Below, piece by piece: positions 4,072 to 57,120 of a stretch of DNA of 64,000 nucleotides. The DNA comes from Selaginella moellendorffii (taxonomy: Eukaryota; Plantae; Lycopodiophyta), in contig NW_003314428.1 of assembly GCF_000143415.4 (NCBI RefSeq), positions 62,001-126,000 on the forward strand. Reading direction: 5' to 3'. A program made the translations under genes and the position numbers. The stretch's first letter is position 1; each line of letters starts with the position of its first letter. Under the pieces are notes generated by a model. The model saw nothing but the letters and a program-made list of their open reading frames with translations. It searched no databases and had not been told where the DNA came from.

Positions 4072-5867
4072 TGTAAGCGACTAAATTTTCCATTCTACTT
4101 TAGTCACTTAACCACACCTCTGACCACTTGGAGGAGTCTCATTCACAACCTCCATGAGTCCAATCCAGGACTTGGGACTTGCTAGCCCCGAGAATGGCAT
4201 CCATGCCACTCAACATTTGCACTTGGTCCAAGTGCTCCACGTGTCCGATCCCATGACCGACACTCAAAGGTACCACCGACATAGCAGCCTGTTACGCTAA
4301 GGCCATGCCCAATCACCTTTGCCACACTGGTAGTCCAATACCACTTGCATCACCGTCTTGGCTCTCCAAGACTAGGCAAACCATCCGTGAGTGGTCATCT
4401 CAGATCCACTCCTTAGCATCCTTAGGATGCCCACCGACAAGGGGAATAGCCTTCCCCAATATCCCTTTGTCAGTCCCCACTAAGTCCCTTTCTGCCCCTG
4501 GCCGTGTTTGCCAACACTGCCACTGGATCGAGACCCACAAGCCCGACCACTAAGTCCCACGGTCCTTTGGGACTTCCTCACCACACGACTATATCCTTGG
4601 TCACTACCCCAGAGGACTGCTCCTCTTCCTTTCCACAGTCTGGGCCTTTGGGACAACATTTCGGAACACCGTGGCCTTACGCGAGCCACCGGGGTACTCT
4701 CCTCGCCTTCTGCCCTTGGGTGCTCTAGCCATGGGTTTAGAGCGGGTTCCGTTGAGCCACACCAGGTATCCAAGTAGGTAGTGCCACCCACACTTGGACT
4801 GGGAGCATCGGCCAGTCGATCTCCCGGGGGAACTAGAGCCGGCTCTTGAACACTTCACCAAGCTACCCCGCTTGTCGGTCTGTGTTCACTCTAGTCTTGG
4901 ACTTCCCAGTGGGCAGCTCATCACCCAACACTGGGTCCGGCCTTCCTAGGCCAAACTGGCCTTTCTTGGCCAAACTGGCTCCACTACAGTCCTCCCCCCT
5001 TACTATACTTTTGGAGCTCACCAAATCCCCCAGGGTCTGGGAGACGAACGCTTTGGGCTTTCACCCTCTCAGACTCGAACTCGGACTCGGACTCGGACTC
5101 GGACTCGGACTCGGACTCGGACTCGGGCTCGGACTCGGACTCGGACTCGGACTCGGACTCGGGCTCGGGCTTGCTCTCGGCCTCGGCCTCGGTCTCGGTC
5201 TTGGTCTCGGTCTCGGTCTCGGTCTTGGTCTCGGTCCCGGTCTCGGTCTCGGTCCCGGTTCCATCTCGGACTCCATCTTGGACTCCATCTCGGGTCCATC
5301 TCGGACTCCATCTCGGGTCCATCTCGGGTCCATCTCGGACTCCATATTGGACTCCACTTCGGGTCCATCTCGGACTCCATATCGGACTCCACTTCGGGTC
5401 CATCTCGGACTCCATATCGGACTCCACTTCGGGTCCATCTCGGACTCCATATCGGACTCCATATCAGACTCCACTTCGGGTCCATCTCGGACTCCATATC
5501 GAACTCCATCTCGGACTCCACTTCGGACTCCATATCGGACTCCATATCGGACTCCACTTTGGGTCCATCTTGGACTCCACTTCAGGTCCATCTCGGACTC
5601 CAACTCGGGTCTGCCTCGGACTCCATCTCGGACACTTCCACGTGTCATGTGTTGGTCCTTTTTGGGTCCCCTTTTTGGAGCCTTGCGTATTGGTTGCCTC
5701 GTGCTTGCTCCTCGAGCACTTTGTTGGGAGTTCCACTCCCGCTCTCGACCTTCCAAGTCGGAGCTTTTAGTTCAAACGTGTTATGCTCGTTTGGCTTTCG
5801 CTTCGGCCACTACCACGTGGCACCCTTTCCGACTCCACTTTGGGGCCTAGGGATTTTGTGTCTCACA
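4072..5867 (-). repeat. Family A LTR (~1.8 kb)
   Basis: TG...CA termini; near-identical to 27564-29487 outside the minisatellite. Confidence 0.93.
5073..5632. repeat. Compound minisatellite inside LTR A: (GGACTC)n/(GGTCTC)n followed by ~12-bp CTCCATCTCGGA-type units
   Basis: Directly visible. It produces the spurious GL/SP/DR/ES repeat ORFs in all frames. Confidence 0.95.
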
Positions 5868-5939
5868 AGATGTTCCACCTCTAACTTACTATCATCATGT
5901 TTTCATCTTCCAGAGGGGAAGATGGTGTAAGGTTTGTAA

Positions 5940-27563: not shown

Positions 27564-29487
27564 TGTAAGCGACTAATTTTTCCATTCTACTTTAGTCACT
27601 TAACCACACCTCTGACCACTTGGAGGAGTCTCATTCACAACCTCCATAAGTCCAATCCAGGACTTGGGACTTGCTAGCCCCGAGAATGGCATCCATGCCA
27701 CTCAACATTTGCACTTGGTCCAAGTGCACCACGTGTCTGATCCCATGACCGACACTCAAAGGTACCACCGACATAGCAGCCCGTTACGCTAAGGCCATGC
27801 CCAATCACCTTTGCCACACTGGTAGTCCAATACCACTTGCATCACCGTCTTGGCTCTCCAAGACTAGGCAAACCATCCGTGAGTGGTCATCTCAGATCCA
27901 CTCCTTAGCATCCTTAGGATGCCCACCGACAAGGGGAATAGCCTTCCCCAATATCCCTCTGTCAGTCCCCACTAAGTCCCTTTCTGCCCCTGGCCGTGTT
28001 TGCCAACACTGCCACTGGATCGAGACCCACAGGCCCGACCACTAAGTCCCACGGTCCTCTGGGACTTCCTCACCACACGACTGTGTCCTTGGTCACTACC
28101 CCAGAGGACTGCTCCTCTTCCTTTCCACAGTCTGGGCCTTTGGGACAACATTTCGGAACACCGTGGCCTTACGCGAGCCACCTGGGTACTCTCCTCGCCT
28201 TCTGCCCTTGGGTGCTCTAGCCATGGGCTTAGAGCGGGTTCCGTTGAGCCACACCAGGTATCCAAGTAGGTAGTGCCACCCACACTTGGACTGGGAGCAT
28301 CGGCCAGTCGATCTCCCGGGGGAACTAGAGCCGGCTCTTGAACACTTCACCAAGCTACCCCGCTTGTCGGTCTGTGTTCACTCTAGTCTTGGACTTCCCA
28401 GTGGGCAGCTCATCACCCAACACTGGGTCCGGCCTTCCTGGGCCAAACTGGCCTTTCCTGGCCAAACTGGCTCCACTACAGTCCTCCCCCTACTATACTT
28501 TTGGAGCTCACCAAACCCCCCAGGGTCTGGGAGACGAACGCTTTGGGCTTTCACCCTCTCAGGCTCCGGACTCGGACTCGGACTCGGACTCGGACTCGGA
28601 CTCGGATTCGGACTCGGACTCGGGCTCGGGCTCGGTCTCGGCCTCGGCCTCGGTCTCGGTCTCGGTCCCGATCTCGGTCTCGGTCTCGGTCTCGGTCCCG
28701 GTCTCGGTCTCGACTTCGGACTCCATCTCGGACTCCATCTCGGACTCCATCTCGGGTCCATCTCGGGTCCATCTCGGACTCCATCTCGGACTCCATCTCG
28801 GGTCCATCTCGGACTCCATCTCAGACTCCATTTCGGATCCATCTCGGGTCCACCTTGGACTCCATCTCGGACTCCATCTCGGACTCCATCTCGGGTCCAT
28901 CTCGGACTCCACTTCGGACTCCAACTCGGGTCCATCTCGGGTCCACCTCGGACTCCACTTCGGACTCCATCTCGGACTCCATTTCGGATCCATCTCGGGT
29001 CCACCTCGGACTCCATCTCGGACTCCATCTCGGACTCCATCTCGGGTCCATCTCGGACTCCACTTCGGACTCCAACTCGGGTCCATCTCGGGTCCACCTC
29101 GGACTCCACTTCGGACTCCATCTCGGACTCCATCTCGGGTCCGTCTCGGACTCCACTTCGGACTCCAACTCGGGTCCATCTCGGACTCCACTTCGGACTC
29201 CAACTCGGGTCCATCTCGGACTCCACTTCGGACTCCAACTCGGGTCCATCTCGGACACTCCCACGTGTCATGTGTTGGTCCTTTTGGGTCCCTTTTTGGA
29301 GCCTCGCCTTTTGCTCGCTTCGTGCTCGTTCCTCGAGCACTTCGTTGGGAGTTCCACTCCCGCTTTTGACTTTTCAAGTCGGAGCTTTTGGTCCAAACGT
29401 GTTACGCTCGTTTGGCTCTCGCTTCGGCCACTACCATGTGGCGCCCTTCCGGCTCCACTTTGGGGCCTCGGGATTTTGTGTCTCACA
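27564..29487 (-). mobile_element. Young family A solo LTR
   Basis: TGTAAG...CTCACA with perfect TSD AGTGT; near-identical to 4072-5867; inserted antisense in the 5' LTR of the old copy. Confidence 0.95.
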
Positions 29488-31603: not shown

Positions 31604-32616
31604 TATAAGCCACAAATTTTTCCTTTCCAATTTGCTAGCTTACATCATCTATCCAACCACCATGACTTTGGCCTTCGTTAAGTTCCCTTGCCAAGGTTCC
31701 CACCTATTGTACCAGCTCCTACTTGGTTTTACTTGATTTTAGCAACTCATTGCACGAATAACAAAGCGTTAGCCATCCATCAATGGATTCCCAAATTTAT
31801 CCCAATCCCCCTCCCTGGGTTAGACTTGACTTAAGGTTCAGCTACACTCTTTACAGGCATAAGTAGCCAAACACACTAAGCCTCTAGGTTCTTAACATCC
31901 CTTAGTACAACAAGACTTGATTATGGGACACTCTAAATCCCAAGCCTTGAGTGCAACACTTACTCCAGGACACTAGGGGAAGCACCATGGCATAACAGCC
32001 TGGTATAGGTATTCCTACTCCCCCACTTCCATCCCGAAGGGAAGGCCCAAGCCCCTAGGAAGGGCAAGGACCAATGAGCCGCAAAATACTCAAATGGGGC
32101 ACCACTCCACATAAGCCGAGAGCACCGTAGTCGGTTTCCCTTCAAAAAGTGGGAGCTGCTCTTGAGCACTTTCTTGGGTGGCCCCTCTGGCACCCCCAAG
32201 TCTATGCTCACTCCCACCCAAGGCCCTTATGCCCTAACCTCAACCTCAAGTCAGTTTGGAAGCACCACTGGAGAGTTCCTTCAAGACTAGTTCTTAGACC
32301 TCATTATCCCTACTATACTTTTGGAACCCCCTGCAGCGCCCCCCCCCCCCCCCCTTGGGAGCATATGCTTTGGGATTTCACCCCATAACTTGTATTAGTA
32401 TTTGGACTCGATTTCAAACTTGATCTTGGACTCGATCTTGGACTTGATCTTGAAGTCGGTCTCGAAGTCGGTCTCAGACTTGGTCTTAGAGTCGGTTCCA
32501 GACTTGATCTCGAACTCAATTTTGTACTCGGTCTTATCCAATGAACTTTTTATCATTTCGGTTGTGCTTTCGAGGATACTTTAGCTTACAATACTTCAGG
32601 GAGTTGGTTCCTTACA
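31604..32616 (-). mobile_element. Solo LTR, family C
   Basis: T(A/G)TAAG...CTTACA termini interrupting the family A internal sequence; degenerate TSD GTGTT/ATGTG; carries the shared LTR core motif at 32308-32384. Confidence 0.7.
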
Positions 32617-33833
32617 ATGTGGTGACTCAAATAATGGAGGTGTGGAAGCACTAGCAATGAGTTGTAGGACTTGATAACTATGAGAAAACTAAGCAAAATA
32701 TGAAATGTAATTGATTGGATTGGTAAAAGTTAACTACTCAGACTTCTTATTGAGATAAGAATGTTAGGTATATCCTCAAGGGGATAAATTGTAATATAGT
32801 AAGTCAATATCATAAAGGAAAATGCTTATTGTCAAAGAATGCCATCAGTGGGACATCTAAACACTCTAAAATATTAGAAAGTGGTGTTTGATATCATGAT
32901 AGCATTAAATAAGGCCCAAAGGACTAAATCCCTAATGAATAATAAATAGAAGGTGTTATCCAATGTCCAAGGTTGCAGAGATGGGAGAATTTTATCTATC
33001 TGAATTGGACAAAGCCAAAAAGGATTTTGGCAAGGCTAGTGACGGGCATATGAAGACCCAAAAGTAGCTACATTAATCTTAGTGTGTCAGATTACAAGGT
33101 GAGTATATCCAGGTTGACGAACCACTCTCTATACTATCGGGTAGGTTCGCTCTAAAAATACTTGTTAAGGCATGGTAGAAAGTGTAAAGTTATCCTCCTA
33201 GTCTGGAGGAGAATAACTAAAAGAAACGTGTGGGGTCAAAAACAAATAAAGGGATAAAAATTAAACCATAGAAAGCAAAGGGCATAGCCAAGAGTGGTTA
33301 AACAAGTTGGGAGTGGAGAATCAAATGGTTATTTGAAAGTGTTATTACTAGCAATTGTGAGCCCATGGAGAGTCTAAAGTATGGAATTGTCCATATTAGA
33401 CTATATGGCAATTAAAAAGCTTGCAAAAGAAGAGGCCTTAACAAACTAAGGGATAGAGTCCCTTCAAGGTTCCCAAAGACAATTCTAGGTAAGTTAGTAC
33501 TTAGAAAGACAAGTGTAAATAGTTCATAGAACGTGCGAAATTAGAGTGGTGCAGCAGAAGTGTAGTTTTGAAGTTTGTCATGAGGCGAGGCTATCAAGAT
33601 TGGGAAAGTAGTTCCTGAGTGTTCAAAGATATGGCTTTGAACAAAAATTGATGGTTAATGACTTTCACACTTATGTAGGAAACCATGTGACATTTGTCGG
33701 GTGACTTGCTAAGTGAGATTAGTAAGTCAGGGGAACAAAGACCCTAGTTGAAGGTGTTGACTTCAAAAGAGGGGCCTATATGGCCAAGCATGGAGTAGTT
33801 CATGTATGATCATAGATTTGTCAAATGAGAGGA

Positions 33834-33857
33834 ATGCTCTATTTCGTTAAAGTGGGA
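33834..33857 (+). repeat. Left terminal inverted repeat
   Basis: ATGCTCTATTTCGTTAAAGTGGGA; 23/24 match to the reverse complement of 47217-47240. Confidence 0.95.
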
Positions 33858-34493
33858 TTTATTCAGTAAAATGGGACTAGGTACAAATTTTCAAGTATTT
33901 GAAAATGACGTGAAATTATATGTTTTTTGTCCAGGGGCTAGATATATCTGGGGCATGGTGACTAGCGCGGTGACTTTATGTCCAGACTGAGTCCATCTGG
34001 TTGTATAATAAATCTCATTGTCAAGGTGAACAAACCGAATCTGAAGCTAAAGAAGAGCGATGGCATGCGCGCACACACTATTTATTTGTTCATTGAGCGT
34101 GTGGTGAGCTTTCCAAGATGAATGTCATTCCTATTAGCCAGACATATAACTTAATAGTGAGAACATTTAGATATTATTCAATGTTATCTTTTTCTAACGA
34201 ATCTAATTGTGAAGGTGTAGCAAGAGGCATTGCTAGTCTGGAGAAGTCATTTAACTCATTTGACCCTTAGTGTATTTTCATGAAACTAAATAACATTCAT
34301 ATTATTAAGGAATTTCTCTAGTACCTTTTTTTTACGACATAGAGGCTTGCATTTTTTTCAAAGGTGATTTAGTAAAAGGCCTGAGGGCACATGCCATTCT
34401 ATTTCTCAGACCGGTATTAAGATATACTAGTGCAAAGGGAAAAAGGTATTTGGTGATCAAGTAAATGGCATGAGGGCACACGCCATTATAAGC

Positions 34494-34751
34494 CTAAGCG
34501 CTAGTGGACACCTCCTTTTTGGTACTCTCAGCGGTACTATCATCCTTCTCTGGGTCAGTTGTTTTGCTTTGGATTGTTGTCTCTGACGTTACTGGGGTGT
34601 TCTCGATAGTTGTTAATGTTGCCGTTTGTTCAGAAAAATGATCACTTGGAGTATAGTACGGGGAGTTTGGAAGACTTATATATTCTACATCTTCACCTAT
34701 CTCCTTCTCCGTCTCCTTTTCTGCCTCACTTACAGATTTTGTGCTTGCCAT
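34494..34751 (-). CDS. Small acidic/Ser-Thr-rich ORF (85 aa) inside the transposon, unknown function
   Basis: ATG at 34751, MASTKSVSEAEKETEK...EVSTSA*; flanked by palindrome copies. Confidence 0.35.
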   Translation of the reverse strand: MASTKSVSEAEKETEKEIGEDVEYISLPNSPYYTPSDHFSEQTATLTTIENTPVTSETTIQSKTTDPEKDDSTAESTKKEVSTSA

Positions 34752-34958
34752 GAGAGCGCTCTTCACCCTAAAATATGGAGTTTGTTGTGTTATAAAAGGA
34801 AACCAACACACACGCTGCAAGGGAATGATGGTACATAAAGCACGTAAGCCCACAATATGGGTTTATGTGCCATTAATATGGGCCACACGCCATATTATTA
34901 GATTTATGCACATGTGATTGGTAAATGCATATGTCACATCATCTCAGGCCACATGCCA

Positions 34959-37900
34959 TCACGCCTCCTCTGATTCAGATTCGGATTGTTCACCTTGAAA
35001 TAAAATACATTAGAAACTTAGTAAAGGAATATTCATGAATCTCACCTTGAACCCAGGTTATGAATGCTCTTGCTGCATCTCTTGCATGGTCTGGCAAGGT
35101 GATGGTGGCACTCTGCTTCCACATCCAACCATGCACAACATTATCCACCGATATGCTCATGCTGGGATCCCTTGGATTCAGCACCCATCTCTTTTCTAGG
35201 CAATCCTTCGTATATCCGGAACTTGGCTTGAACCACTCCACAGTTACATTGAAGGAGTTAGTTTCCGCGTCCTCCTCTGCATCAGTGATGCAGTGTCCCA
35301 CCCATATCATTTGTTTTTTATTACTGGGTCTGACAAGCACGACCATTCCTTTGCAGACCTGTACTGGATTGAATGCTGAATCTGGCTTCTTGTTCCTCGG
35401 CCCACAATAGTGATCCTCAACATCGTTATCTGTCACTGCATTTCTAGAGGACATTGTTCCGCTACTATCTGGTGCTCTAGGTTCTGGCCAAAAGGACTCT
35501 TCCAATTCTTCATATACAACCGGCCCATTTTGGATAGCAGATATAATCTTCTCCCAGTATTCGAGCAAAGGCTTGCACCTCTGAAAATAGGATTCTCCAC
35601 CAAACACCAACCCCCTCTTCCAGAAGGCAATATGCTATCTAATCCCGGCCACTATACTTTCCTGGTCTTTGAGTCCATCCGAGTGCATCGGCCATGGGGA
35701 ACACTGAGGAATCATAGGTTCCCCAATTATGGGATCTCTCTTGAAGAGTTCAATGCCGTCCACTGGCAGCCACACTGTGTCCCATTCTCTCATCTTGTAC
35801 CTCATCACTGGAGCACCGTCACACATGCTGAAATGAAACTGAAGAGGCTTGGAGTGGCCAATCAGCGTTTCGGATCCGTCCCTGATGTAGCCTCTTACAA
35901 ACCCCTTAAAGTCTGGAATCTCTGTCAGAAGTGCAGCTTCAACAGTGCCTTTGATGCAATTTTGGAATTCATCGTAGAGTTGTGGGAGGGTGAGGACATT
36001 GGATCGCCGAAGGGACTCTGCCAGGTGACTAAACATGGCATCGACGTCTTCATGAGTGTGCCCAACCATGAGAAAGCCAAGTGTAACCGTTTCAAATATG
36101 CCTTTGGCAACAAGCATCGCCAAGTACGCGAAGACGTACGTTTTTGTTCTCACTGCCAGCATTGTCTGTTTGGAGCAGAAGATGGGGTGGAAGGCCACAT
36201 CGGCCGCAAGAACTTCCTTGAGATTCTGCTTCGTTTGGATGAGGCTGTGCATTCACCGGGCGACTAGCCTCGTCGGAATGGCATGAGGCCTCACGTGATA
36301 ACCCTACAATCTGACGGCCAACATATTCACTGGGATGGCATGGGGCCCCACGCGATATTGCAAGCCTTTGCTCCTCCTCCAGCTGAACCCTGTATGGGGT
36401 TCGATCGACAAGGGCCTTATGCAAGGGTTGGCCGTTCAGCTCAGTCTGCGCACTTTGTAGAGACCTTAAGTGTTTTGCTAGGGACGCAATCATCATGTTT
36501 GCACCCCCGCCACCCCATAGAGGTACAAAGAAGTTCCCATAGTTCTGGGCACCATGCCCATGAGCGATTATGCCAAACAGAGACACAGGTAGCTGCATGG
36601 ATGAAGAGATTGCCTTGGGGGCAGGATTGAGTCGAGGTAAGCACGTCTTTTTCTGGTCCATTTTGTCGTGGATGATGCAGAGGTAAGAGTCAGGTCTCTC
36701 CATGGAGAGAATCCTGTTATGATAATATGCAGTCCTGCAGCTTCTCTGCTCGATGTTGTGGTCGAGCCGCCTTCTAACCAACGTCTCTCGCTCTTGAGCG
36801 ATGCAAGAATTCTTCGACAAAGCCATTTTGATAGCAGTGCACTCGTCACACTTTGAAAAGCTGGAGTACTTTCCTATACTCACATCCCTGAACCTGTTGC
36901 TCCACAATCTACTAAATCTAGATTGGCTCAGCTTCCTGTAGCCATTACTCTGGAGTTCCTGATTCACATCTTCCAATATGGCCCCCTTGGTATACATGGA
37001 AGGGAGAACTCGTTGGGTGTCTCGTGTTCCATCTTCCAAAAGGCGGGTTTTATGTGGTTGCTGCTCGCTACATGTCTCGACAAACCTCTTGAAGATTGCC
37101 TCTCCATATACAACATGACCCCTGGTTTTGTGCATACCGTCGTTCCCATGGACTGCCTGTTGAACCCTTTGTTCCTCGAACTCAGTTTTGATTCTGTAGA
37201 ATGTGGTTCGAGGGACTCCATAAATGATTCTCCATGCCTTCATGCAGACCAAACCCCTCTGGAAGACCATGCCCCCCACCTGATGTTCTGAAGCATCAAC
37301 AGATGACCGTAATGCCTCATACACAAAATTGCGAGCTGCCTTCCAGGACAATGTCTTGTATCTTGCTCTCTCCTCTTCAATAGCATCCCAATCAGCATGT
37401 TGACAGCACCTCCTCTTGCAACAAGCAACTGTTGAGACCATTCGAACTTCCATCGCCATTTTCTGCCTTTTCGGTTCGTTGCTCAGATCCCTTTGGCTGC
37501 GCTTTAGGAAGGTGTACTTTCTTTTCCCATAAAGAGATGTTCTATCATCAGTTGTAATGGTGTTTGATTGTGAATCCTTCACATTCTCAAACACTAAGTG
37601 CCTCAATTTCCACCGCACAATGCTTCCAATAGTCAGACTGTTTTCTTCTGTGTCAACAACCTCTAAAATCACAACTCCAATATCATCCCAGCCCAATTCT
37701 TGATTAGCAACCGCATCTCTTGGATCGACAACTGTGGCTAAGCCCTCAGCTACCACCTCCCCCTCGGGGTTGTTTAGAAACACCTTCGCCTGAATCCATG
37801 TAGCACGGTTCTTAAGATCCACGGAGGGAACATGCGTCGCACTTGCGCTGTCCCCAACATCTGCTTTCTTCTGAAGATTTTTCAAGGCAACAACAACATT

Positions 37901-38098
37901 TACCCCGACGACCATCTCTCCTCGTTCAATAGCGACCACATTCCCAGCGAAGACAGTCTCTACTGATACAGCAGCATTGCCTTCCCCAAGCCTTTGACAG
38001 TGTATAACAAAGTTCCGATCCATAGACACAAGGGTCCCTTTTGCAACTCTCTTCCCACCATTTAAAATGTAAACCTTTTCCCCAACCCTGAAGGCCAT
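34959..38098 (-). pseudogene. Sola-type DDD/E transposase (~1000 aa reconstructed), disrupted
   Basis: Motifs FSKCDEC, IIHDKMDQKKTCLP, LQTDNAGSENKN and FLMVGHTHEDVDAMFS. Joins ORFs 36092-38098, 35635-36252 and 34990-35610 through a frameshift at ~36140 and an in-frame TAG at 35635-35637. Probable 52-nt last intron 35045-34994; splice acceptor just before the ATG. Confidence 0.85.
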
Positions 38099-38286
38099 TC
38101 TGAAAGTGCAGAAAAGAAGTTAAGACCATATAAAAAATGATTGGAGAATGGCCTAAATCATAACATACCAAACAACCTCAATAGCATGAGGCCACATGCC
38201 ATTATTCAAACATGCTATTGACACCCACGTGAAATTTCGCATTCACAAAATTGGCATGAGCCCTCATGCCATTAGTGGTACCACTA

Positions 38287-38478
38287 ATGGCATGAGGCCT
38301 CACGCTATCTTTGGCCACTGCTAGCCTGTTGCTATATTCCTTTTGCCTTGTTGCAACTGTATATATTTTTGTGTGCGTGACTAGTCACCCATGCAAAAAT
38401 ATATACAATTGCAGCAAGGCAAAAGGAATATGGCAATAGGCTAGCAGGGGCCAAAGATGGCATGAGGCCTCATGCCAT
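38287..38478. repeat. 192-bp loop-less inverted repeat (hairpin)
   Basis: Two 96-bp arms about 90% complementary, centred on GTGACT|AGTCAC (38382/38383), each capped by the 22-bp palindrome. Confidence 0.92.
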
Positions 38479-41203
38479 CTTGATATACACATAGCTGCAG
38501 GCAAGTAAAAATATACATGACAATATGCTAGCCATGAAATTGCAAGGGCCCAAGATGGCATGTGGCCTCATGCCATTTCTAAATGTGGTCCTAAGCCATT
38601 CCATGGTGAACATACCAGGAAGCACAAGTGCCGAATATCAAGAGGAAGCGGTAGCCACACCAAAGACAGTGCCGCTCGCAACACCGCAACTGCTCGTAGC
38701 GCCGCTCGCACAAACTGCCACTCGCATAAACTGCCGCTCGCAATGGCGCTCGCAATGCCGCAACCGCTCGTAGACGCATAAACCACAGCCCACAACGCCG
38801 CTTACACAAGCAGCGCTCACTGCGCTCAGCGGAACCAAGAACACGGCGCACAAAAATGATAGACCTAGGAATGAGTTCGAGAATTCAAAAATAACACACG
38901 CTTGAACGTCACATCAAATCCTCTGACAAACCAGATTTTATGATTCCTCTGACAAATTTCAAACTGAGTAGCTTCTAGACTTTGCTGTCGGAGGTTGAAC
39001 TTTGTCACATCATGTCCTTGCCTCAATCCAACTGTGCCATGTCAGTGATTCGAACTTTGCCATGCCATGTCAGCGATCCGCGCCAAGATTATTCGCCGTG
39101 TAAAGGAATAATTATGCTGTGTGTGTACGTCCATTTATGGCAATATAAGGCCACACGCCATTCAAAGAATAATGCTAATCGAGCATTTTTTGGTGCATTT
39201 TTGGGTTAAAAATTGCATGAGCCCACACGCTATAAAGTTTACCTGTACCAAAAATAGAAACAGCTTTATTTACTTGGGAATTTAAGTGGTTGAGGCATTT
39301 TTAAACTTACAAACACATGCCCTACTTACATTCCTTTGGTTGCTTAAAATTCAAAAATATTATAAACCTTTCTTTTTGCATTTTCAATGTTTTCAATTAT
39401 GGTTTTTGATTTTCGCAGGACCAGCCTAGTAATCTATTTGCATCCCGTCATGTTTATAACTAGCTTTCGTTTGTCCCCTTCGCTAGCCTGAGATACATCT
39501 GCTCGGCATCTGCCTCTTACAGCATTTGCCCAGAAAGGGCATCTTTCTTCACGCAGCATTTGCCACATGTTTAGGGTTTAGGGTTTAGAGTTTAGCAATT
39601 CAGTAGCTTGATAAACATGCAAATACAGAACTTGATGCAAAATCCTTTGATATGTCACAATGCCCCTAGGACCATAAACACATTTCAATAGAGAGGGTCC
39701 TTTCATTTCATAACTCCTTACGTAGATCTTGGTGAAACCAGAGTTAGTGAAGTTAGTTTCTTGTGATCCCGCATCTGATTGTGATGTCCCTTTGCAGTGT
39801 CGATGGAAAGGTCAATGCACACCAAACTGTAAAATCTTGGAGCAAAATAATGGTCGGATCTATGGCAAATGCCCCTGAAACATTGTAAGGCTCGTGTGGT
39901 CTCATGTGGTGTCCGATTGAGATGCTTCTTTGCAGGGTCATCAAGAAAGACATTGTATACCATTCTGTAAAATCTAGTTGCGATCTAACGGTTGGATCTC
40001 CAGAAAACTCAAAAACATCTCGCGCGTGTCAGAATATCCTAGAAATATACTCCTATGTGCCCCTGAAAATGGCATGCGGCCCCACGCCATTCAAGAGATA
40101 ACGCCAGATGACGTCGAGAATTTTTTGGTGCATTTTTTGGGTTCAAAATTGCATGAGCCCACACGCTATAAAGTTTATCTTTGCCAAATAGAGAAAAGTT
40201 TATCTGTGTCATGTGAGGTAGTTACAGTCCTTTGTGCTCGGCATCTGCCTCTTGCAGCATTTGCACTGAAAGGGAATTTTTCTCCATTCAGCATTTGGCC
40301 CTGAAAATGGCATGCGCCCACACGCCATTCAAGGAATAACGCCACAGGACGCCTGGATTTTTGGGTTTAAAATGTTTAGGGTTTTTTGGGTTTTTTCAAA
40401 ATATTTTGGGTCCAACGTTTTTTGGGTTTCTTTGGTTCAAAATTGCATGAGCCCACACGCTATAATATTGATTTGAGAGAAAAATAGAAACAGATAGAAT
40501 TTCTTTATTTAGCTGAACATCTGCCATTTTTGGAAATACAAGATGCTTTGGAATATCCAATCATGCATGGTATAAATATAGCGAGGGTATTAAATGATAT
40601 CCCAATCATGATCTTTCTTTTGGATTTCGCGTGCATGCAGTTCGAGGAATGATGACGTTGCGGATTTCTTTTGGATTTTGCGTGCTTGCATGCGCGCGGC
40701 AATCCAGAAATTAATGGTGGCGCCCAAGTCCGAGGAATGATGATGTGGTGGGATTACCAACCGTTGTGACATTTCGCGCGTGTGAGGTTAGGTTTTGCAT
40801 TTTGCTTCGTACTCGTGCTCGCACACTCGCGCTCGTGCTCGCATCACACTCACGCTCGCATCGCGCTCTCACTCGCGATCACGCTCACATTCGCGCTCAT
40901 CTACCTTCTCTACAGGTTTCTCATGTGCATCGGCGTCCACTCGCGCTTGCATCACACTCGTGCTCGCATCGCGCTCGTGTGCATCGGCGTCCACTTCAAG
41001 ACACACCCAGTTTGTAACTTTGCCGCCAACTCCGCCGCCCACTCCGCCACCCACACGCAGCCCACTTGGCGTCTCGGGAGATTTCAGCGCCACTCTCCAA
41101 CTGTAAGTGGCAGAGTAGCCTTGCTGCTACGATCCGCTGCACACACAGTGCACATTCGCCAGCGAGTCCGGCCTCGATTGTCACGGCCTCCATTCGGCTT
41201 CAA

Positions 41204-44200
41204 ATGGTAAGTCTTTTAGGCCAAGTAGAAAATGGCATGAGGCCACATGCCATTCAGTAGCAACATTGGCATGCACCGATTGGGCTCTCGAGTGCAGTCC
41301 GGTTACAGATGGCGTGTAGCCTCACGCCATCTTAGGATGCAGCCTCAAGACATCTGATGCAGTGGTGAATGGCGTGTGGCCTTACGTTATTTCCAGCTGC
41401 TAGCTTTTCATCTGTCAGCTCTAATTGTTGTGCATTTCTGAACAGGCGAGGAATTGCGTTCTTCTTCCAGCCACTGTCAATGTGGATGCAGAGAAGGGGG
41501 AGGAGCTCACCAGTTGGACTTTCGGGATGGAAGGCGAGGATCTGATGCTGTACAACACAGATGGTGGGAGAAAAGAATGCATGGGGATCCTCATCCAAGT
41601 GACAGACACTCCATGCAGTTCCATGCAAGAATATGGACTGGCACTTGTGGTAGAGACAGCGTCCGCCTTCAAGATCCACCTTGCACATCCTAGCGGCTTC
41701 CCGGAGGGGGGCAGCGGCTATAAGGAATTCCTAGAGGGAGCTAGGGAGAGGTTGTCCAGGAGGCCCACAATTTCAAAGACGCTGCGGGTCTATGAAGATC
41801 ACATGGAATCCACGGACCTCACCTACGGCGATGTTCAAAAACTATATTCCAACATTGAGCCGTTGAGAGTGCCTCCAGTTCGCGAAGCAAAGGGGAAGGG
41901 GGTCGATCTGGAAATTACCCCGAAGCAGAAAAGGGTGGTCAAGCTCAAGCCGACGTCCGACTCTCCTGCTCCAAAAAAGAAGCTACTCGGTGATGCCATT
42001 GCCTCGGGTTCGAACACTACACCCACCAAAAAGAAGAGCCGCAAAGAGCAGAAAGAGCAAGAAGAGGTAGCAAAAATCGTCGCAAATAATAGTACTTGTT
42101 ACTATTCCAACAAAGTATATACAATCGACGTGAGCCGTATCGACATCCAAAGCAAATACAACCACAGGCTAGTATCTGATGAGTGGGTGGAGAAACTGAA
42201 GCAGAAGATGCTGGCAAGTCCAGTAACACCCGACATCGCAGACGTGATCCCCTACTACCGAACAATGAAGGGCGAGACGAGGTTTCCAGACTTGATCAAT
42301 AGGAAGGTGTTGGACGATCAGAACATCCGGTTCTATGCCGTCTCTGGGCAGCATTCTAGCTTGGCGATGCAACAGATAGTTGTGGATATTATGGTGGGCG
42401 AGGAGGTGAAGAAAGTCTTCAAGACAAGAGTTGTCCGCCTGATAAAAGGCAACTCGCCCCTCCGATCTATCATATACATCTCCCATGCGCAGAATGTCAA
42501 GCAAGAAACGTGCTACAAATCGGGTCTGCACGAGACATTGGCACGAACACGGAAGCTCTGGGTTCAACTGAAGAAGCCACAAAAACCAGGACATGGACGT
42601 GCACTAGCGGCTAGCGCCTGGCAGGTAAGCCTCGTTGCATGTGGCATAACATGTGGCCTCACGCCATTTCCATTGCAGGAATTCTTGAGTCTTCTCTCGA
42701 AAACACTGGGGGTCAATGACACACTCAGCATCCATAACATTCTACTCGCGACAAAAGTTGTTTTTGACAAATGGGTAGATGTGCTGAGGAGGTACCATGA
42801 CGGGGAGTTGCTAAACTCAATGGGTGTGGAGGACGGCCGGAAGCCCAATGATTTGAAGCTCAATGCCTTGCGTTTCTCGCGGTCTCTAGACGACGACGAC
42901 CTTCTGACAGTGGCTAATGCTCTTCTACGTGGTGAGGTAGTCTTCAACAAGACCAAAATGACTCCCGGCCATATTGTGACATACGAGGACTTGTGCACGA
43001 CTCTGAGAGCTCGTGCGCTATTGAAGGATTGGATCTTCGAGCAAGTGGCCGTGGAGAGGGTGAGCATCAACACCACGCAAAAGATGATGGAAGAGCTGGA
43101 GTTGTCAAATGAAGACATCGACGACTACGTGAAGGGGGCCCCCAAGTTCATCGATCTGCTGCGGGATGCCACGAAAAGTAAAAGCTGAGAAGTTGGATCA
43201 GTATCCAAATTTCATTAAGAGGGATGTCAACCGCCGGCTTCAGAAACAGCTCGACCCCGCAGCAGAGGCCTATCGAGAACCTTACCGGGTATACGTGAAT
43301 TCGGATGAGGATCAAAGGTGGAGGAGCATCGTTTCCAGCGGAGATGAGCAGGTCAAGAACATCTTTTGTGTGATGGACTTCACAAACGAGGAGATCACTC
43401 ATGCAGACGAAGTCAGCTCCATCATTGACTTAATGGTGGGACTTGCGAAGGTGGAATCTTCAGTCCACTATATGATTTACGACTCCGAATCTTATCACAA
43501 GTTCTGGAAGGCCTTGAACGAGGTGAAGGCTCGGTTGAAAGGCAAGGAGATGCGGGAGATCCATGGGATAATGGCTAAGAAGAAGATACTGACGAATGTC
43601 CGCATCTTCACACTCGCCCTTGTTATTGGTCCTGCAGCAGAGTGGGACTGGAGTGACTTCCCAGCTTCGTTCAACAAGGCCGATCGAATTGATCTGAGGG
43701 AGGTCAATTTACCCGTGCCTGAGGAACTGAAGACGGCTATGGAGCTTTCGAATCCAAAGAAAGCTCCAGGTGCAGCATGGGAAATGCTCAGCTGGGTCTT
43801 CAACGCAATAGCGGGTGACTCCAAGGGCAAATGCGTTGTCGAGTACAACTACGGCGGACTATTCTTTCAATCCGCACTACTCAAGGGTGTCCCGTGTGTT
43901 GCGGTGACAAACTCCATTGAAGAGGTGACTTGAATGGAGCATATAATTACAGTTGCCAAAGAAAAACAGTATCTTCTCTACGAACCTGGTGAGTACGCAC
44001 TTTAAGTTTAAATGTTATCTCACAAGCTCTGTATGCAGGAGCGTGGCCACCCCCAGATGCTGAAACGGCGTTAACAGCTACTGATGTTAGGCCGAGCTCA
44101 CAACCTGCACAAGGTAAGGTCACGTGAGGCCTCACGCCATTTTGATTATAGATCGTTGTGAATATTCAGACACGAGGACTGAAAAGCGCACTGGTGGCGC

Positions 44201-45128
44201 GTCGAAGAAGGACAAACAGACAAGCAATAGGAAAAAAGGAGGTACAAATTATATTTGTAATGGCGTGTGGTCTCATGCCATTCCTTGCAGGAGACACTTC
44301 TTCAAAGGCAAAACAGGCAAGCACCAGCCAAGCTCAAACTGACAGTGGTCATAAAAAGCGAAAGCACGTTGGACAGTCGTCGGGATCAGAGGCGTTTGAT
44401 TCGAAAAGGAAGAAGGGCAACGAAAAGATGATAGGTAATGCCTCGCGGTTATGGCGTGTGTGCTCATGCCATTCATTGCAGATCAAGGGCTGAGTGAAAG
44501 GAGCCAGTCACCACCTCCTGACTCAGATTCCTATGGCGGACTCCCCTTCCCCAATCTCAATGGAGAGGTACAATGGATGAGGGATGCTTTTCAAGTCAGG
44601 GCCACATTTTTCTCATCTCGTCGTCTTCGAAGGGTGCAAGAACGTGCAGAAACCATGTTAAGACAGTCGGGTGAGGATACGGTCCTAGGTCAAGCTCTAA
44701 AACAGGCTATGGATGTCTTATATTTTGAGATGGAGACTCGGCCAGATGATTTTCCCAAGATGGTCCTGGAAAAACAAGCCATCCAGCCTGAGCAGCCTAT
44801 GGAAGAAATGCAGGAGGGGGATGAGGAGCCAGAGAAAGATAATGAGCAGGAAGAGCAGAAGGACGAAGAGGAGGACAAAGAAGAGGAGGACGAAGAAGAG
44901 GAGGACAAAGAAGAGGAGGACGAAGAGGACTTGGATGGTCCTCACAATGGTGACGATCACAATAACGACGATGACGATGATGACGACGATGGCCAGCCTG
45001 AGGTGGCCAAAGAGCAGCGGAGGAAGGTTATACAAGACAAACCATCAGGTAAATAATAGTACATCCATTCCTAACCTTTTACCATTTCTAACATTGTCCA
45101 TGTAGGTCGCAGAAGAAATGGTAAGTAG
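41204..45128 (+). pseudogene. Multi-exon cargo gene: ParB/Srx (DGQHR-like) domain, helical region, possible degenerate N6/N4-MTase-like domain, acidic tail; one frameshift
   Basis: ATG|GTAAG at 41204; intron 41207-41445; in-frame intron 42625-42678; frameshift at ~43175 joining ORFs 41425-43188 and 43166-43933; further GT-AG introns starting ~43925, 43989, 44114, 44242, 44435 and 45049 that keep the frame. Motifs YTIDVSRIDI..NHRLVSDEWVEKLKQKM and FYAVSGQHSSLAM. Confidence 0.75.
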
Positions 45129-45347
45129 AGATTATTCAGTTGAATTAAGATACAAACTCTAGCCTTTAGTGTCGAGGAAGGATAGTGCCAAGCAAGGGTC
45201 GAAACGTATGTCCAATCCTTCAGAATCAGCAGTGCGCCCAATAGCAATTGATGGTAAATACAGTATAGTCGATTCAATGTGCTAATGAGTTTGTTTTTAG
45301 TAGCCAGTAGGGAGGATACCATCTCAATCGAAGGGAGATATTTGGAC

Positions 45348-46798
45348 ATGCATATAGATCCGCCAGTGGACTCTACTTGCCTGCAAGAGTCATTAGAGCT
45401 AGTGGAGGCTACTATCCATATCAACGCCAAGCAAGCTGACCACGCTCCACTTGATGCTGCCCATACCACTGAGTCAATCTTGTCCACGTATCCAACTGAC
45501 GGTGACTAGGCGCCATTGGACCTGCATGAGGCCGCCCCAGCCGCCAAGCCGGTCGTATCCTCATTTCCAACGGACTCAACGTGTGCCCAATCGTCTGACT
45601 ACGCGCCGTTGGAACCTCCCTACACCGCCCCTGCTGCCTGTTCGGTCATGTCCACTTTGCCAATGGAGGCACCAGCTGAAATGGCGTGTGATCACACGCC
45701 ATCGGAACCACCCCATGCCACTGTTGAGCCAGTTGTACCAGAGTCTACAGCTGAAATGGCATGTGCCCACACGCCATCGGATGCGATTGACCCCACATTG
45801 CAGAGGAGAGTATTTCCGCCCTTCACGTTTCCTCGACCAAAACCCTCTAAACGACCATCGGGAGCACCATTCGCTAATATTGTAGATGGTAAAATTGACT
45901 TGTACCATTTTTTATGCTGACGCATTTCATTTCAGAGTCACGGCGAAAGTACTGTATCATTTTTGATCTGAACGGTGTCCTTTTCTCCCATGAGCGTGGC
46001 TCGTCCTCGAATGTCACTGCACCCTCCAAAGCATGCGGTCGCAAGTTGGTCAAAAGAGACAGATTCACATTAATCACACGGGAGAAACTGTAGGATCTAA
46101 TAATGACCATGCAACACTTAAAACAGAGGGCCGGGTTCAATTTGCAATTGGGAGTTTGGACATCCATGATGCGCCACAATGCATTAACGTTGCTACAGAT
46201 GATGCACGATCAGACGCGAGTAATATTACCATTTGACTTTCTCCTAACGCAGGAGGATTGCTTGACTATGGTCCATGTGAGGGGTAGCAAGCCCATCTTC
46301 GTCAAGCCAGAGGCTGTAGTGATGAACCGGACTGCTAGGTCAAGTGAAATCCTCATCATCGATGACTCGCCGATTAAAACTGCAGCGAACACGCACACAT
46401 ATGTAGTGCACCCCATCTCTTGCAGTATGGAAACTAGGGAGAAGAAACCATATGTTCTGGGGGACCTTGCAAAACGGCTTGAAGCGATGGTGATAGAGAA
46501 CCGGCCAGTCCAGGAGGTGGCTGCAGAAATCAACCAAATGGCAGATGGAACGGTATATCAGAAGCCATTTGATCGGACAGACACCAATCATCATTTATGG
46601 CATGTATATTGTCTAGCCAAGCACTATTCGCATCTCCATAATCTGCTCAACTGGATGGGTTCTTCGACCACTAAACATGAGCGTGGACGTATTAGAGAAG
46701 AGATGGCATTACTATTGGGTTTAAATCCTGATAGTGTGGAGAGTGATAAAATTCCAAGATTATTGTATAGGCGTTGGAGGCAAAAAATAACAGTCTGA
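45348..46798 (+). pseudogene. FCP1/SCP (NIF-family) HAD phosphatase-like cargo gene with two premature TAG codons
   Basis: After the intron at ~45889-45934: KYCIIFDLNGVLFS (HAD motif I variant), LGVWTSMMRHNA (motif II) and ILIIDDSPIK (motif IV). In-frame TAG at 45507-45509 and 46091-46093. Confidence 0.8.
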
Positions 46799-47216
46799 GA
46801 TGGCATGTATTTATTTAAAAATGTAACTTATTATGGCATGGGGTTCCATGCCATTGTATTAATATTAAAAGACAATTCTTTGAGAGGATTTGCATTATAC
46901 TATAAGTGTTACAGCATGTTATTGGAAGTCTACAAAGTTGTTTTATTAATAAAGGGAAAGTAAAGATTGAATGGGGACTTGGGCTCCACTTAGACTCGGA
47001 GCAACTGAGCCAATATTAAAAGGATGGAAAGAAATTGGATGACGATAATAAGGAGAAGAGAGAGGTGAAGCAGTGGCAGGGGGAGGAGAAGTGATTGAGT
47101 AGACATTTCCTTATTTAAAATAAAATGGCATGTGCCTCAATGCAGTTGAATTTTGTTATATTTATATACTATATAAAGGTTTGGAAACCTTATTTTACAA
47201 GTGGGATAATGACAAT

Positions 47217-47240
47217 TCCCACTTTAACGAAATAGAGCTT
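47217..47240 (-). repeat. Right terminal inverted repeat
   Basis: TCCCACTTTAACGAAATAGAGCTT followed by TSD AGGA. Confidence 0.95.
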
Positions 47241-49912
47241 AGGACTTGGCAGTTTGGAGGAATTAAGTTCCTAAGCTATAATGTAATTTGGGTATAAATT
47301 GGTGCATTGGCGTGAGGAGTCATCCCAAGCATCCTAGGTGATGCTGTCCATAGATGCATATATGGAGATTGGGTTTGAGTCCCAACCTTCTAGTGTTTGG
47401 GTTTGAGTCCTAACTCACTAGGGCATGATGATGGTTTGGAATATGAGAACACTCATTTTTTGGTGGTCATGGACTCTCAATAAAGAGACTACCTTGGGCC
47501 CACCACCAAGCGGGGGATGCCCTTCTTTATTATTTACCATGCACTTTTTTAAAAGTTAAATGACAAAGTTGAAAAGTTGTTTTCCTTTCAGAGCCATGAT
47601 GTACAACTAGATTGCTTAGTGTGAAAGCTCGGCATATCTTACTTGAACAATTTGGTGCAAGTGGCACTAAGAACGTGGTGAATGAATTGGGGACATCTAA
47701 TCACAATTGCTATGGACGGGTTAACTTGGGCGCACCACCAAATGTGGTGGATGCCCCTAGGTTCATGGTCAACAACTTAAAGGTCTGGAAGATTTAGTAC
47801 ATATTGGCAAACTTGTTAAGGTGTCAAAGTGAGATCATTAGATGATCTTGTGGCTAAATAAGGACAAAGTCTTTGTTTGGTTAAGGAATAAGATTCCTAG
47901 TTCAAAGTGCTAATTTGAACTATTAGTAATGGTGTGACTTGGTCAAAATGACTAAGTGGGAAGGACACCTAAGAGAAATTAGCTATATCAATATGCTAGC
48001 ATAGTGAATCCAAGAAAGTAGTCTCTAGGAAAGACCATGGGAGGGTTACAAAGTTGGGCTATAGATAAAGCCCACAACAGAAAATGCTAAAGAAACTTAC
48101 TAAGGGTGAACACCTTTTGGATTTCGCAAAGTAAAGCTTTTGCTATGGAACCAAAAGAATACCTCAAAGATCGAGGTAGTGATCCTCTATTGCTTAATGC
48201 AATAATTAAGGGATAAAAGCAAAAGGCTAGTGGCTAAGATTGGGGCATAAAAATCATTAGAAAGAATCTAAACAGTAAAGTTAAGCAAGGAACACTCAAA
48301 TGTTGGATGCTAACTAATATTGGGAAAGGAAATATGATTTTAATAGATTCCCAAATACTCTAATTTGGCAAAGGTGAAAGTTCCAAGGGAGGGAGTGGCA
48401 AGGAAGCCAAATAGTAGGGCTGTGGACAGCCCTAGCATAAATTAAAGATAAATGGAACTTAGTGGCTAAAGTGGCACAAAATAGAAGAGAAGATGATGGT
48501 GCCCTTAAGTAAAGAATTTTTTAGGATGGGGAAGTGGAATTTCCACAACATGTGCAATGCAAGGTGTTGGAGACACATAGAAAATTGACTTTGAGAAGTT
48601 AAAATTAAAAGTTCCAAAGTGTGATGGTTATATTGTTAAAAGCTGAGACTACTCGGGAATGAGTAGTTGGATTGAGATAGAGAAAGTGTCTCTAACGGGT
48701 TTAGCGAGAACTAAACCAAATAAAGGGAGAGAACCACCACAAGTGGTTTATTAAATCTCTAAGTTAGAAAGACTATGCTCCTTGGATAATGAGTAAGGCA
48801 TGGTGAGCCTTTAGTGTCAAACCGTTGACGAATATTGACTTGATGCTAAGGATGAAAAGAGTAATATATAATAGTGCTACTTTATAAAATGGTTTATCAT
48901 TTGATGAGGACATCAAACTTTATTTATGGGTGGTGGAGTTGTGAGACACAAATCCCTAAGCCCCAAAGTGGAGCCGAATGGGTGCCACGTGGTAGTGGTT
49001 GAAATAAAAGCCAAACAAGCGTAACACATTTGGACTAAAATCTCTGATGTGAAAAGGCAAGAGTGGGAGTGGAACTCCCAACAAAGTGCTCAAGGACCAA
49101 GTATGAAATAAGCAATGAGTGAGTCTCTAGAAAAGGGACACAAGAGGACCAACACATGACACGTGGAAGTGTCGAGATGGACCTGAGATGGAGTCTCAGG
49201 TGGACCTGAGATAGAGTCTGAGGTGGACCTGAGATGGAGTCTGAGATGGAGTCTGAGGTGGACCTGAGATGGAGTTTGAGATGGAATCTGAGATGGACAT
49301 AAGATGGAACCAACTGAGTCTGAGAGTCCGAGTTCGAGTTCAAGCCCAAGTCCAAGTCCGAGTCTAAATACTAATACAGGCTATAGGTGATGTTGGATCA
49401 CCGATGTGACAAAGGTGAATGGGCATGGCCTTAGTGTAATGGGTTGATATATTGATGGTACCTTTGGGTGTTGGTCATGGGATCAGACACGTAGAGCTTT
49501 TGGACTAAATGCAAAGGTTGAGTGGCACGGATGCCATTCTCGGGGTTAGCAAGTCTCTAAATTGAGAATAAGACTTATGGAGGTTGTGAGAGAGACTCCT
49601 CCAAGTGGTCGAAGGTATGACTAAAGTTGAATGAAAAATTTAGTTGCTTACAGTATAGAGCCCTGAGTTTGTTGACCACATGCAAACCAGCCAGTTCTCG
49701 CCTCTCTAGGATGATCCTTTGACAGTAGATAGTATGCAATGCCAGCTCAATCCAGGCCATTGGATTTGAAGACATTGCAGCCAATTCTTGGGGATCTTCC
49801 CCATTCACAAGAACAAAAAATGGAGGCTGAAGTGGAATCCAGAAAAGCTAACCTTCCATATACCAACTTATAGCATGGCAGGAGAGTCCCACAGCCAAGT
49901 CATGACACAGAG

Positions 49913-56399: not shown

Positions 56400-57120
56400 A
56401 TATACCTCAGTTCACACTCCTCTTGTTCAAACAAAACTTAAGGAATGTGTGGTAGTGGAGCATGGGTGGCCTTTCTACAACCAAGAAGCTCTGGAGGTCT
56501 AGGGATCAAATAACCTCTCTATCCTTTGTGAGACTTCCAAAGTATTAGAAAATGTTTTGGATATAATAAACTCACCTGATTGGGTCCTCAAATGAAGGAA
56601 TTTTGGTTAGAACCCCAGATAGTATTCATATCCTGCTCAATGAGGTTGAAATCTGTGGCAAAATCACCCCTTATTAGTCTCAGCTGGCCAAAACGTCTTA
56701 CAGCAGAAGTGTAAATGTCATAAACAGTGTCCCCTTGCATGTTAGTGCACAATACAGCAGCAACTGCATAGTGGGAGTAGCCATTGATTATTGCATGAAC
56801 CCAAAGGTTCCATGATGCTAGCTTACACCAACCTGGAAGAAAAGAAAAATAAACATATAAACACCAAAACTGTTTCTTACTGTCAATGTGCCACATGCAT
56901 ATGGGGGCAGATACATTGTACAATTTGCGATCTATCACCTGCCAGAAACATCTCCCATGGGTTTGCAGGTCACTCATAAGAAATGCCTCTCGAACCATCC
57001 TCACAGAAACCTGTAAAAGGGTCCTATAAACATTCCAAATTCCCTAGTTGCTCCTCTTGAAACTTCACTGCAATCTGTTGTGGATTCTTATGGAGATAGA
57101 CCCCGTGCCATACAAAAAGA
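56400..57120 (-). pseudogene. Decayed eukaryotic IS3-like (IS3EU/rva_4-type) integrase-core transposase
   Basis: RKLYNVSAPICMWHID..KLASWNLWVHAIINGYSHY..NMQGDTVY..AVRRFG..LIRGDF..GSNQNSFI parallels the pattern YSVPGPNSLWHIDG.HKL..W...HG.IDG.SR...N.A.TV...A...G.P.RVRSD. Confidence 0.7.

Follow-up and report, generated by a model that had tools for sequence, protein, structure and literature searches.

Dispersed 22-bp palindromes in a DUF7869 DNA transposon of Selaginella moellendorffii, and a predicted ParB-fold protein as their candidate reader

A 64,000-nucleotide stretch of Selaginella moellendorffii DNA (assembly GCF_000143415.4, contig NW_003314428.1, positions 62,001 to 126,000; here called the window, whose own numbering is used throughout) contains a DNA transposon along which one short palindrome, ATGGCRTG-N6-CAYGCCAT, recurs. 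What are these palindromes for, and which protein reads them? The transposon carries two divergent genes, one for a transposase with a DUF7869 domain and the other for a large accessory protein whose front region has a predicted ParB-type fold. We give an even chance to the reading in which the palindromes are family-specific sites on double-stranded DNA for a dimer of this ParB-fold protein, through which the element regulates itself. The sites occur only within the element, are scarce in coding sequence, gather at the divergent gene starts, are symmetric without covariation between their halves and vary from clade to clade. Analogy with VirB, KorB and VANC suggests that the protein may bind them, spread from them and counter silencing.

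The window was scanned for the 22-bp motif with mismatches allowed and with shuffled sequence as a control. Exact matches numbered 12 (0.00 in shuffles). Allowing up to 2 mismatches gave 23, all within 34060–46854 (0.06 in shuffles), and allowing up to 3 gave 28, of which 26 lie inside the element (34060–47146) and 2 outside it, at 1567 and 47307. The pattern is real and non-random, and the motif is probably functional. All 29 copy positions listed in a first-pass annotation of this DNA are real, and the half copies that it recorded at 34872, 34938 and 39140 correspond to the right half of the motif. Contigs of the family have a full site at 34938, with 1 mismatch, which is severed here by a deletion of ~434 bp at 34945. 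The annotation had also placed every copy between the terminal inverted repeats (TIRs). This holds for good copies: under a scoring matrix trained on the element-internal copies, those inside score 15–37 bits, and a matrix scan of the 50.6 kb of window flank found no good copy. It does not hold for the two 3-mismatch look-alikes at 1567 and 47307, which score 1.9 and 5.6 bits and occupy paralogous positions within the flanking repeat. The look-alike at 47307 lies 67 bp from the insertion site and is also present in the empty paralog (3 mismatches), either by chance or as a hint of target choice. Viral contigs contained no exact match to the motif.

The element that confines the copies is a whole TIR DNA transposon of 13,407 bp (33834–47240). 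Its left TIR (33834–33868, plus strand) has a perfect 22-bp core at 33836–33857, matched in the right TIR (47207–47240, minus strand) at 47217–47238, and the 4-bp target-site duplication AGGA stands on the plus strand at 33830–33833 and 47241–47244. The flanks match an empty paralogous repeat (window 1374–2496): 33002–33833 and 47241–48500 together align to one continuous repeat at window 2496–446, and the empty-site joint 33829>47241 is present in sequencing run X1, with 4 letters shared at the joint. Inverted repeats, target duplication, empty site and a DDE-type transposase are all as in a cut-and-paste TIR transposon. With ends AT..TT and CxxC before the first D, the element does not fall within the CMCT clade (EnSpm, Plavaka) as that clade is described (PMC12730594). 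Among contigs of run X1 covering the stretch, 57,677 of 63,604 are at least 95% alike, and the stretch is contained in 20 of the 24 listed sequencing runs, none of them recorded as RNA; the element is a decayed member of a young family with many copies. It is inserted in one copy of a repeat family that carries tandem arrays of 6-, 11- and 12-bp units and recurs in both orientations at 4900–5900, 28540–29250, 32390–32530 and 49160–49390.

The internal structure of the palindrome bears on what kind of molecule recognizes it. In 49 of 52 symmetrised half sites, G or C stands at positions 10 and 13 (1.68 bits), and strong variation is restricted to positions 9/14 and 11/12 of the 22-mer. Because positions 10/13 are constrained, the centre is no free spacer, contrary to the earlier description of a variable 6-bp spacer, and the unit consists of two 11-bp half sites, ATGGCRTGWGS and its complement, which together form the 22-bp palindrome. 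At the CpG-bearing step of the half site, CA occurs 21 times, CG 17, TG once and CC once in 40; since CG to CA is frequent and CG to TG almost never seen, one base is constrained and the other tolerated. Reading of a methyl group, in line with the CpG/TpG idea of the annotation, might account for this, but the palindromes of two related loci described below, L002 and L004, contain no CpG.

Such symmetry might reflect RNA instead, the copies acting as hairpins that control splicing or serve as small-RNA precursors. Their intronic location would suit this, as would a long hairpin at 38287–38478, and most of the 14 copies in the two predicted transcription units could, with G-U pairs counted, pair at 6/17 on the transcribed strand. 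However, complementary pairs match independent expectation at every position (6/17, 11 vs 11.0; 9/14, 9 vs 9.2), halves do not covary here or in 9 related loci, and many copies are intergenic. An Rfam scan returned no family at cut-off, its 19 weak matches being 18 generic microRNA-type hairpins (38245–38578) and one that was small-nucleolar-RNA-like. We consider a role as RNA hairpins barely credible. Alternatively, the copies could have spread neutrally through local duplication, or derive from a tiny miniature inverted-repeat transposable element (MITE). Duplication has contributed, although the first-pass annotation had argued against it: flanks are shared within three groups that together hold 9 of the 26 copies, the copy at 34060 lies in an inverted copy of a transposase exon, and relatives carry tandem arrays. 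However, the 26 copies resolve into 20 flank-independent groups with a median flank identity of 0.30; none of the 26 has target duplications of its own beyond AA/AAA runs at three related copies, as the annotation's own MITE check had asked; position-specific constraint is strong; and placement in introns recurs among relatives with different sequences. A neutral or MITE origin is in our view highly improbable. The lack of covariation between halves and of target duplications argues against RNA hairpin and MITE alike and, with good copies confined between the TIRs, supports the annotation's proposal of a DNA dyad for a dimeric protein. Local duplication is the likely source of copies, and selection on the dyad the likely filter.

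Two local arrangements are relevant to copying. The segment at 34006–34067 is an inverted copy of the last transposase exon, its splice acceptor and the site that follows, a visible route of palindrome duplication near the left end. The introns at 42625, 44242 and 44435 share the motif and a similar run of 9–11 nucleotides to the acceptor, as if copied as a unit. An introner-like origin of the motif-bearing introns was set aside, as the position of intron 2 appears common to homologs.

Within the element, coding sequence makes up 59% of the length and holds 4 of the 26 copies (p=5e-6), all four in a variable transposase linker or a short coding duplication. The earlier statement that copies concentrate in introns is correct for the gene bodies, with 7 copies per 787 intron bases against 4 per 7946 coding bases (p=1e-5), but not for the element as a whole, in which the largest share, 13 of 26, is found where the two genes start divergently, over a stretch of 3.3 kb (p=0.005). 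These p-values treat the copies as independent, whereas the copies form the 20 groups given above. From left to right, the sites comprise the left-arm palindromes 34060, 34376 and 34465 with the half sites 34872 and 34938 (34060–34959), where 34938, full in the family, overlaps the transposase stop codon; two palindromes, 36278 and 36335, in the transposase linker (36278–36356); five, at 38181, 38251, 38287, 38457 and 38555, in a putative intron of the transposase 5′ untranslated region (38181–38576); the intergenic sites 39140 (half), 39212, 40069, 40148, 40307 and 40442 (39140–40463); three, at 41232, 41309 and 41369, in intron 1 of the accessory gene (41232–41390); single palindromes at 42646, 44119, 44260 and 44451 in its introns 2, 4, 5 and 6, which are 47–56 nucleotides long (42646–44472); two, at 45681 and 45756, in a 75-bp coding duplication in exon 10 (45681–45777); and, in the right arm, a half site at 46800 directly past the accessory-gene stop, 46833 and the degenerate 47125 (46800–47146). 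The three copies assigned earlier to intron 1, and the one in each of the introns at 42625, 44114, 44242 and 44435, are therefore where they had been reported; 6 of the 11 predicted accessory-gene introns have no copy. In the putative transposase 5′ intron, 38246–38478 contains two nested inverted repeats, one of which (38287–38478) has 96-bp arms that are 90% complementary, a possible source of hairpin or small RNA. At 41100–41139, contigs of three runs share only that stretch and diverge on both sides; it may be a promoter element conserved among related families.

This distribution bears on two further explanations. Enhancers typically show such clustering near promoters and in first introns, and recruitment of a host transcription factor would account for it. 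However, relatives have an unrelated 18–26-bp sequence in each clade, longer than the usual sites of plant transcription factors, and the 50.6-kb flank lacks a good copy; a host factor is very improbable. Host factor, neutral duplication and RNA structure are, even taken together, quite unlikely. In the second explanation, the ParB-fold protein would compact the 13-kb element, or bridge it, and so bring its ends together for transposition, with no part in controlling expression. Sites do run along the whole element, with no gap above 1,846 bp, and ParB clamps have been suggested to bridge DNA (PMC10770331). Against this, half of the copies surround the gene starts, not the ends, and the acidic and phosphatase-like regions of the accessory protein would suggest regulation; we regard end pairing as improbable.

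The candidate reader under our favoured reading is encoded by the accessory gene (41204–46798, plus strand), for which splice sites and frames predict 12 exons and a product of ~1,620 amino acids. Introns were predicted from GT-AG ends and continuity of frame, and the 11 predicted GT-AG introns keep one frame once family differences are allowed. The window copy is broken at ~43180, 43931, 45507 and 46094; family contigs differ at the first three, and 46094, a stop in exon 11, is not among the 40 of 232 differences that were listed. Sequences of run X20, which we guess to be RNA, are unspliced across intron 1 and so are uninformative on splicing. In order, the protein would consist of an N-terminal region, a basic linker, the ParB-fold domain, a helical domain, an alpha/beta region, an acidic tract and a HAD/NIF-like tail.

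Structure prediction supports the earlier call of a ParB-like gene. The predicted ParB/Srx-fold domain (42094–42515, plus strand; model residues ~23–162) was modelled by AF2 with a mean predicted local distance difference test (pLDDT) of 80.7, and it has a Box I-like Arg, a Box II G-Q-H-S/T and a Box III-like Asn. Foldseek with this model gave Noc and ParB as top matches (best E=1.3e-3), with phage Spo0J/ParB at E=2.7e-4. VIA-align gave Z 11.0 for Caulobacter ParB (root-mean-square deviation (rmsd) 2.2 over 97 residues), Z 10.0 for PadC and Z 9.1 for KorB; chromosomal ParB and Noc reached Z 10–11.4, against 6–7.6 for sulfiredoxin. These results predict a ParB-type fold for the front region of the protein. 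The fold is not recovered by sequence profiles alone (best match phrog_1033, E=0.087), sequence searches of the Protein Data Bank (PDB), plasmids and phages gave no meaningful match, and a word-based search with the accessory protein returned nothing among 7,993 candidates. With the front half as query against representatives, phmmer returned 20 hits, 18 of them usable; the other two, P0016 and P0019, are unrelated repeat proteins and were set aside.

Downstream of the fold, the helical domain (42520–43185, plus strand) is the candidate DNA-binding domain. Further on, 43190–43930 resembles by eye an N6/N4 methyltransferase-like domain, a tentative reading that had no support from Pfam, PHROGs, NCBIfam or a second model of the downstream region. 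At 45950–46420 (plus strand) lies a NIF/FCP1-like phosphatase-fold region with the motif IIFDLNGVL (Pfam NIF, E=0.0019, below the cut-off of that family), in which DxN stands where DxD is expected; such a tail could touch the regulation of RNA polymerase II. No 2-oxoglutarate (2OG) oxygenase was matched in Pfam, PHROGs or NCBIfam, and the model there is of low confidence.

The other gene of the element provides the main alternative reader. It encodes a DDE-type transposase of ~1,030 amino acids (34961–38098, minus strand; Pfam DUF7869, E=3.6e-30) with a small predicted intron at 34994–35045, and it is frameshifted in the window copy near 36139, where family contigs differ by an indel. Twelve of its 13 homologs are at 28–41% identity. 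Named homologs, in Calypogeia, Riccia and Selaginella (liverworts and a lycophyte), point to a non-seed-plant host. A short frame rich in Ser/Thr and acidic residues (34497–34815, minus strand) lies past the transposase stop, behind a good splice acceptor, and may be a third gene or an alternative exon. The transposase or a splice form of it could itself bind the palindromes as regulatory or end-recruiting sites, as in Spm TnpA and AtMu1, and transposases can act as sequence-specific activators (10.64898/2026.08.24.746577). Its N-terminus matches Transposase_23 weakly (E=0.28), and homologs carry PF26133. A transposase is also present at every palindrome locus, by construction of the search; arrays in relatives lie mostly just upstream of it; and TIR-bounded elements without a detectable ParB-like gene keep their arrays. 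However, the half site is unrelated to the TIR (best match 5 of 11); no more than 3 of the 26 copies are found less than 500 bp from an element end, whereas TnpA motifs are terminal; the ParB-fold gene would be left unexplained; and a ParB fold with inverted repeats recurs alongside an unrelated transposase. We judge a transposase reader somewhat unlikely.

Relatives of the element place the motif in a wider context. Scanning metagenomes with the transposase alignment yielded 308 relatives. Of these, 80 were retained, many of them near-duplicates, and 40 of the 80 were tested for dispersed palindromes (L001–L030 and ten others, with duplicates and most of one large subfamily left out). The test was passed by 16 of the 40 loci and by 0 of 3 window-flank controls, and by 9 of the 14 loci among L001–L030 that had at least 600 bp upstream. 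No array of the window motif was found in the 80 loci, the best match being an isolated one with 1 mismatch in the duplicate pair L064/L076. Many relatives carry palindromes of their own, 18–26 bp long and different in sequence from the window motif, mostly just upstream of the transposase and in many cases as tandem arrays with periods of 47–143 bp. In a tree of 60 of 81 rows, from which short and near-identical rows were dropped, each motif type was confined to one transposase clade; because kin share motif labels, this pattern shows turnover, not co-evolution. Three other clades (L023/L027; L026; and L031, L034, L048, L075 and L079) also have copies within introns of the transposase or gaps in its coding sequence, and in L026 there is overlap with the stop codon, as in the window element. 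The distant L045/L046 have a broken ParB-like gene in divergent orientation, ~8 kb upstream of their transposase (E=5e-6 against that region). Two side observations concern these loci. L031, L036, L040, L066, L079 and their relatives form a decayed ~10-kb subfamily with its own 26-bp TIR, in which two palindromes alternate in a 46–49-bp tandem unit; and L009:2105–3880 folds back on its own transposase gene, as an inverted duplication or an assembly artefact.

Under the favoured reading, a dimer of the accessory protein would bind the 22-bp palindromes for self-regulation, most likely by countering host silencing. The helical domain would read each 11-bp half site, and the protein would load at the sites, none of which is more than 1.85 kb from the next, and cover the element, while its other domains might act on chromatin or transcription. 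New sites would arise from local duplication and persist where coding is undisturbed. Motif and protein would change together, so that each family would tag only its own copies, in cis or in trans. Bacterial proteins related in this fold bind palindromes and offer precedents: virS, the site at which VirB loads, is palindromic, and VirB relieves silencing by H-NS (PMC10770331), while KorB exerts long-range repression from its operator (PMC11790492). A bolder version seems to us unlikely: DUF7869-group transposons of land plants would carry a bacterial-type ParB/parS module, in which a nucleotide-gated clamp of altered chemistry (GQHS) would load at the palindromes of its family, slide along the 13-kb element through chromatin and hold it unsilenced, with motif and reader co-evolving into an address code private to each family.

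Several observations weigh against an accessory-protein reader. In all 15 sequences that cover it, Box II is G-Q-H-S/T and the GxxR arginine is absent; loss of this arginine abolishes nucleotide binding in tested ParB folds (PMC12704722), which makes clamp loading doubtful. Some ParB alignments extend to model residue 326 over the helical domain, but with an rmsd of 8–15, and the second model gave no clear helix-turn-helix match for it (mean pLDDT 59.8; best Z 7.1, to unrelated folds). A ParB-like gene was detected in 2 of the 80 loci, the near-duplicates L045/L046 of one locus, with a weak trace (E=0.07) in L048, most of the 80 being too short or too decayed for its detection; and a ParB-like frame is absent from the conserved left arm of six TIR-bounded relatives. 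The TIR-bounded, ~10-kb L036 and L040 keep palindrome arrays without a detectable ParB-like gene, which fits either binding by the transposase or supply of the accessory protein in trans. The palindrome test used shuffles that did not preserve tandem repeats and had only 3 natural controls, and some of its 16 positives (L064, L065 and L079) may be minisatellites. Finally, 162 of the 219 places at which the window copy differs from the family are C>T or G>A in the window copy, so this copy was probably methylated despite its sites.

The closest known system is PAG3, ParB-like genes with adjacent inverted-repeat arrays on red-algal Plavaka elements, for which self-binding was proposed and which also occur on Mutator and Zisupton elements (10.1101/2025.02.11.637652). 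In both cases a eukaryotic DNA transposon has an accessory gene with a ParB-like N-terminal part, inverted repeats and the same self-binding hypothesis, and 7BNR, the best match of PAG3, is also a top match of the window accessory protein. By contrast, the window element has a DUF7869 transposase, a 4-bp duplication and AT..TT ends; its palindromes are dispersed through introns and the intergenic region, whereas PAG3 arrays stand beside the gene; it has no detected counterpart of the 2OG oxygenase domain of PAG3; motif turnover across clades is seen in its DUF7869 relatives; and its homologs are in liverworts and a lycophyte. VANC21 and VANC6 of the Arabidopsis VANDAL elements likewise pair an accessory gene with a family-specific non-coding motif, found in introns and intergenic regions and spread by tandem duplication (PMC5735166). 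However, VANC motifs are of 8–9 bp, in the same orientation, non-palindromic and on Mutator-like elements, and binding and demethylation have been demonstrated for VANC (PMC5735166), whereas analogy suggests such a role for the window protein. The window element, with its DUF7869 transposase and 4-bp duplication, is not a Mutator-like VANDAL. ParB/parS, Noc/NBS, KorB/OB and VirB/virS share the nucleotide-binding-domain fold predicted here (PMC12704722, PMC11790492, PMC10770331), and in each the palindromic sites are dispersed over the same replicon that carries the gene for the protein; VirB is an anti-silencer. The window protein differs from them in lacking the GxxR arginine, in having only a candidate helix-turn-helix, a 22-bp site and large extra domains, and in its chromatin context, and no ParA gene was seen. 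Spm TnpA and AtMu1 share family-specific clustered motifs and an element-encoded binder, but TnpA motifs are terminal and non-palindromic, and the binder is transposase-derived (10.64898/2026.08.24.746577).

As for the transposase group, the DDE-type core with a GHTH motif, short TIRs and 4-bp duplication of the window element resemble those of Sola-type DNA transposons. We take DUF7869 to be linked to that type. The 13-kb length and large accessory gene set it apart from Sola-type elements, and the one target site seen here, AGGA, differs from the AWWT hallmark of Sola1 (PMC3845634). In a literature search whose coverage excluded most subscription journals and Repbase reports, no paper connected ParB genes or dispersed palindromes with elements of the DUF7869 or Sola type. 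Elsewhere in the window, broken frames resemble by eye a PIF1-type helicase, Helitron-like, at 59982–61309 (minus strand) and an integrase-core-like transposase at 56588–57043 (minus strand).

The idea of a ParB protein on a transposon is thus already published for red-algal Plavaka, and is here extended to another transposase group and to land plants; what is added is comparative evidence for family-specific turnover of the motif. VANC and TnpA are the only cases in which self-marking by transposons and their escape from silencing are understood in detail. The Selaginella element belongs to a young multi-copy family, with contigs that lack most breaks of the window copy, and it sets a precise 22-bp site beside a candidate reader, so that the hypothesis raised in red algae becomes directly testable in land plants, and clades with different palindromes allow tests of cross-specificity. 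Sliding of the protein, if it occurs, would make it a ParB-type clamp of eukaryotes that works on chromatin, and a capacity to lift silencing would make the family a source of orthogonal, sequence-addressed epigenetic tools.

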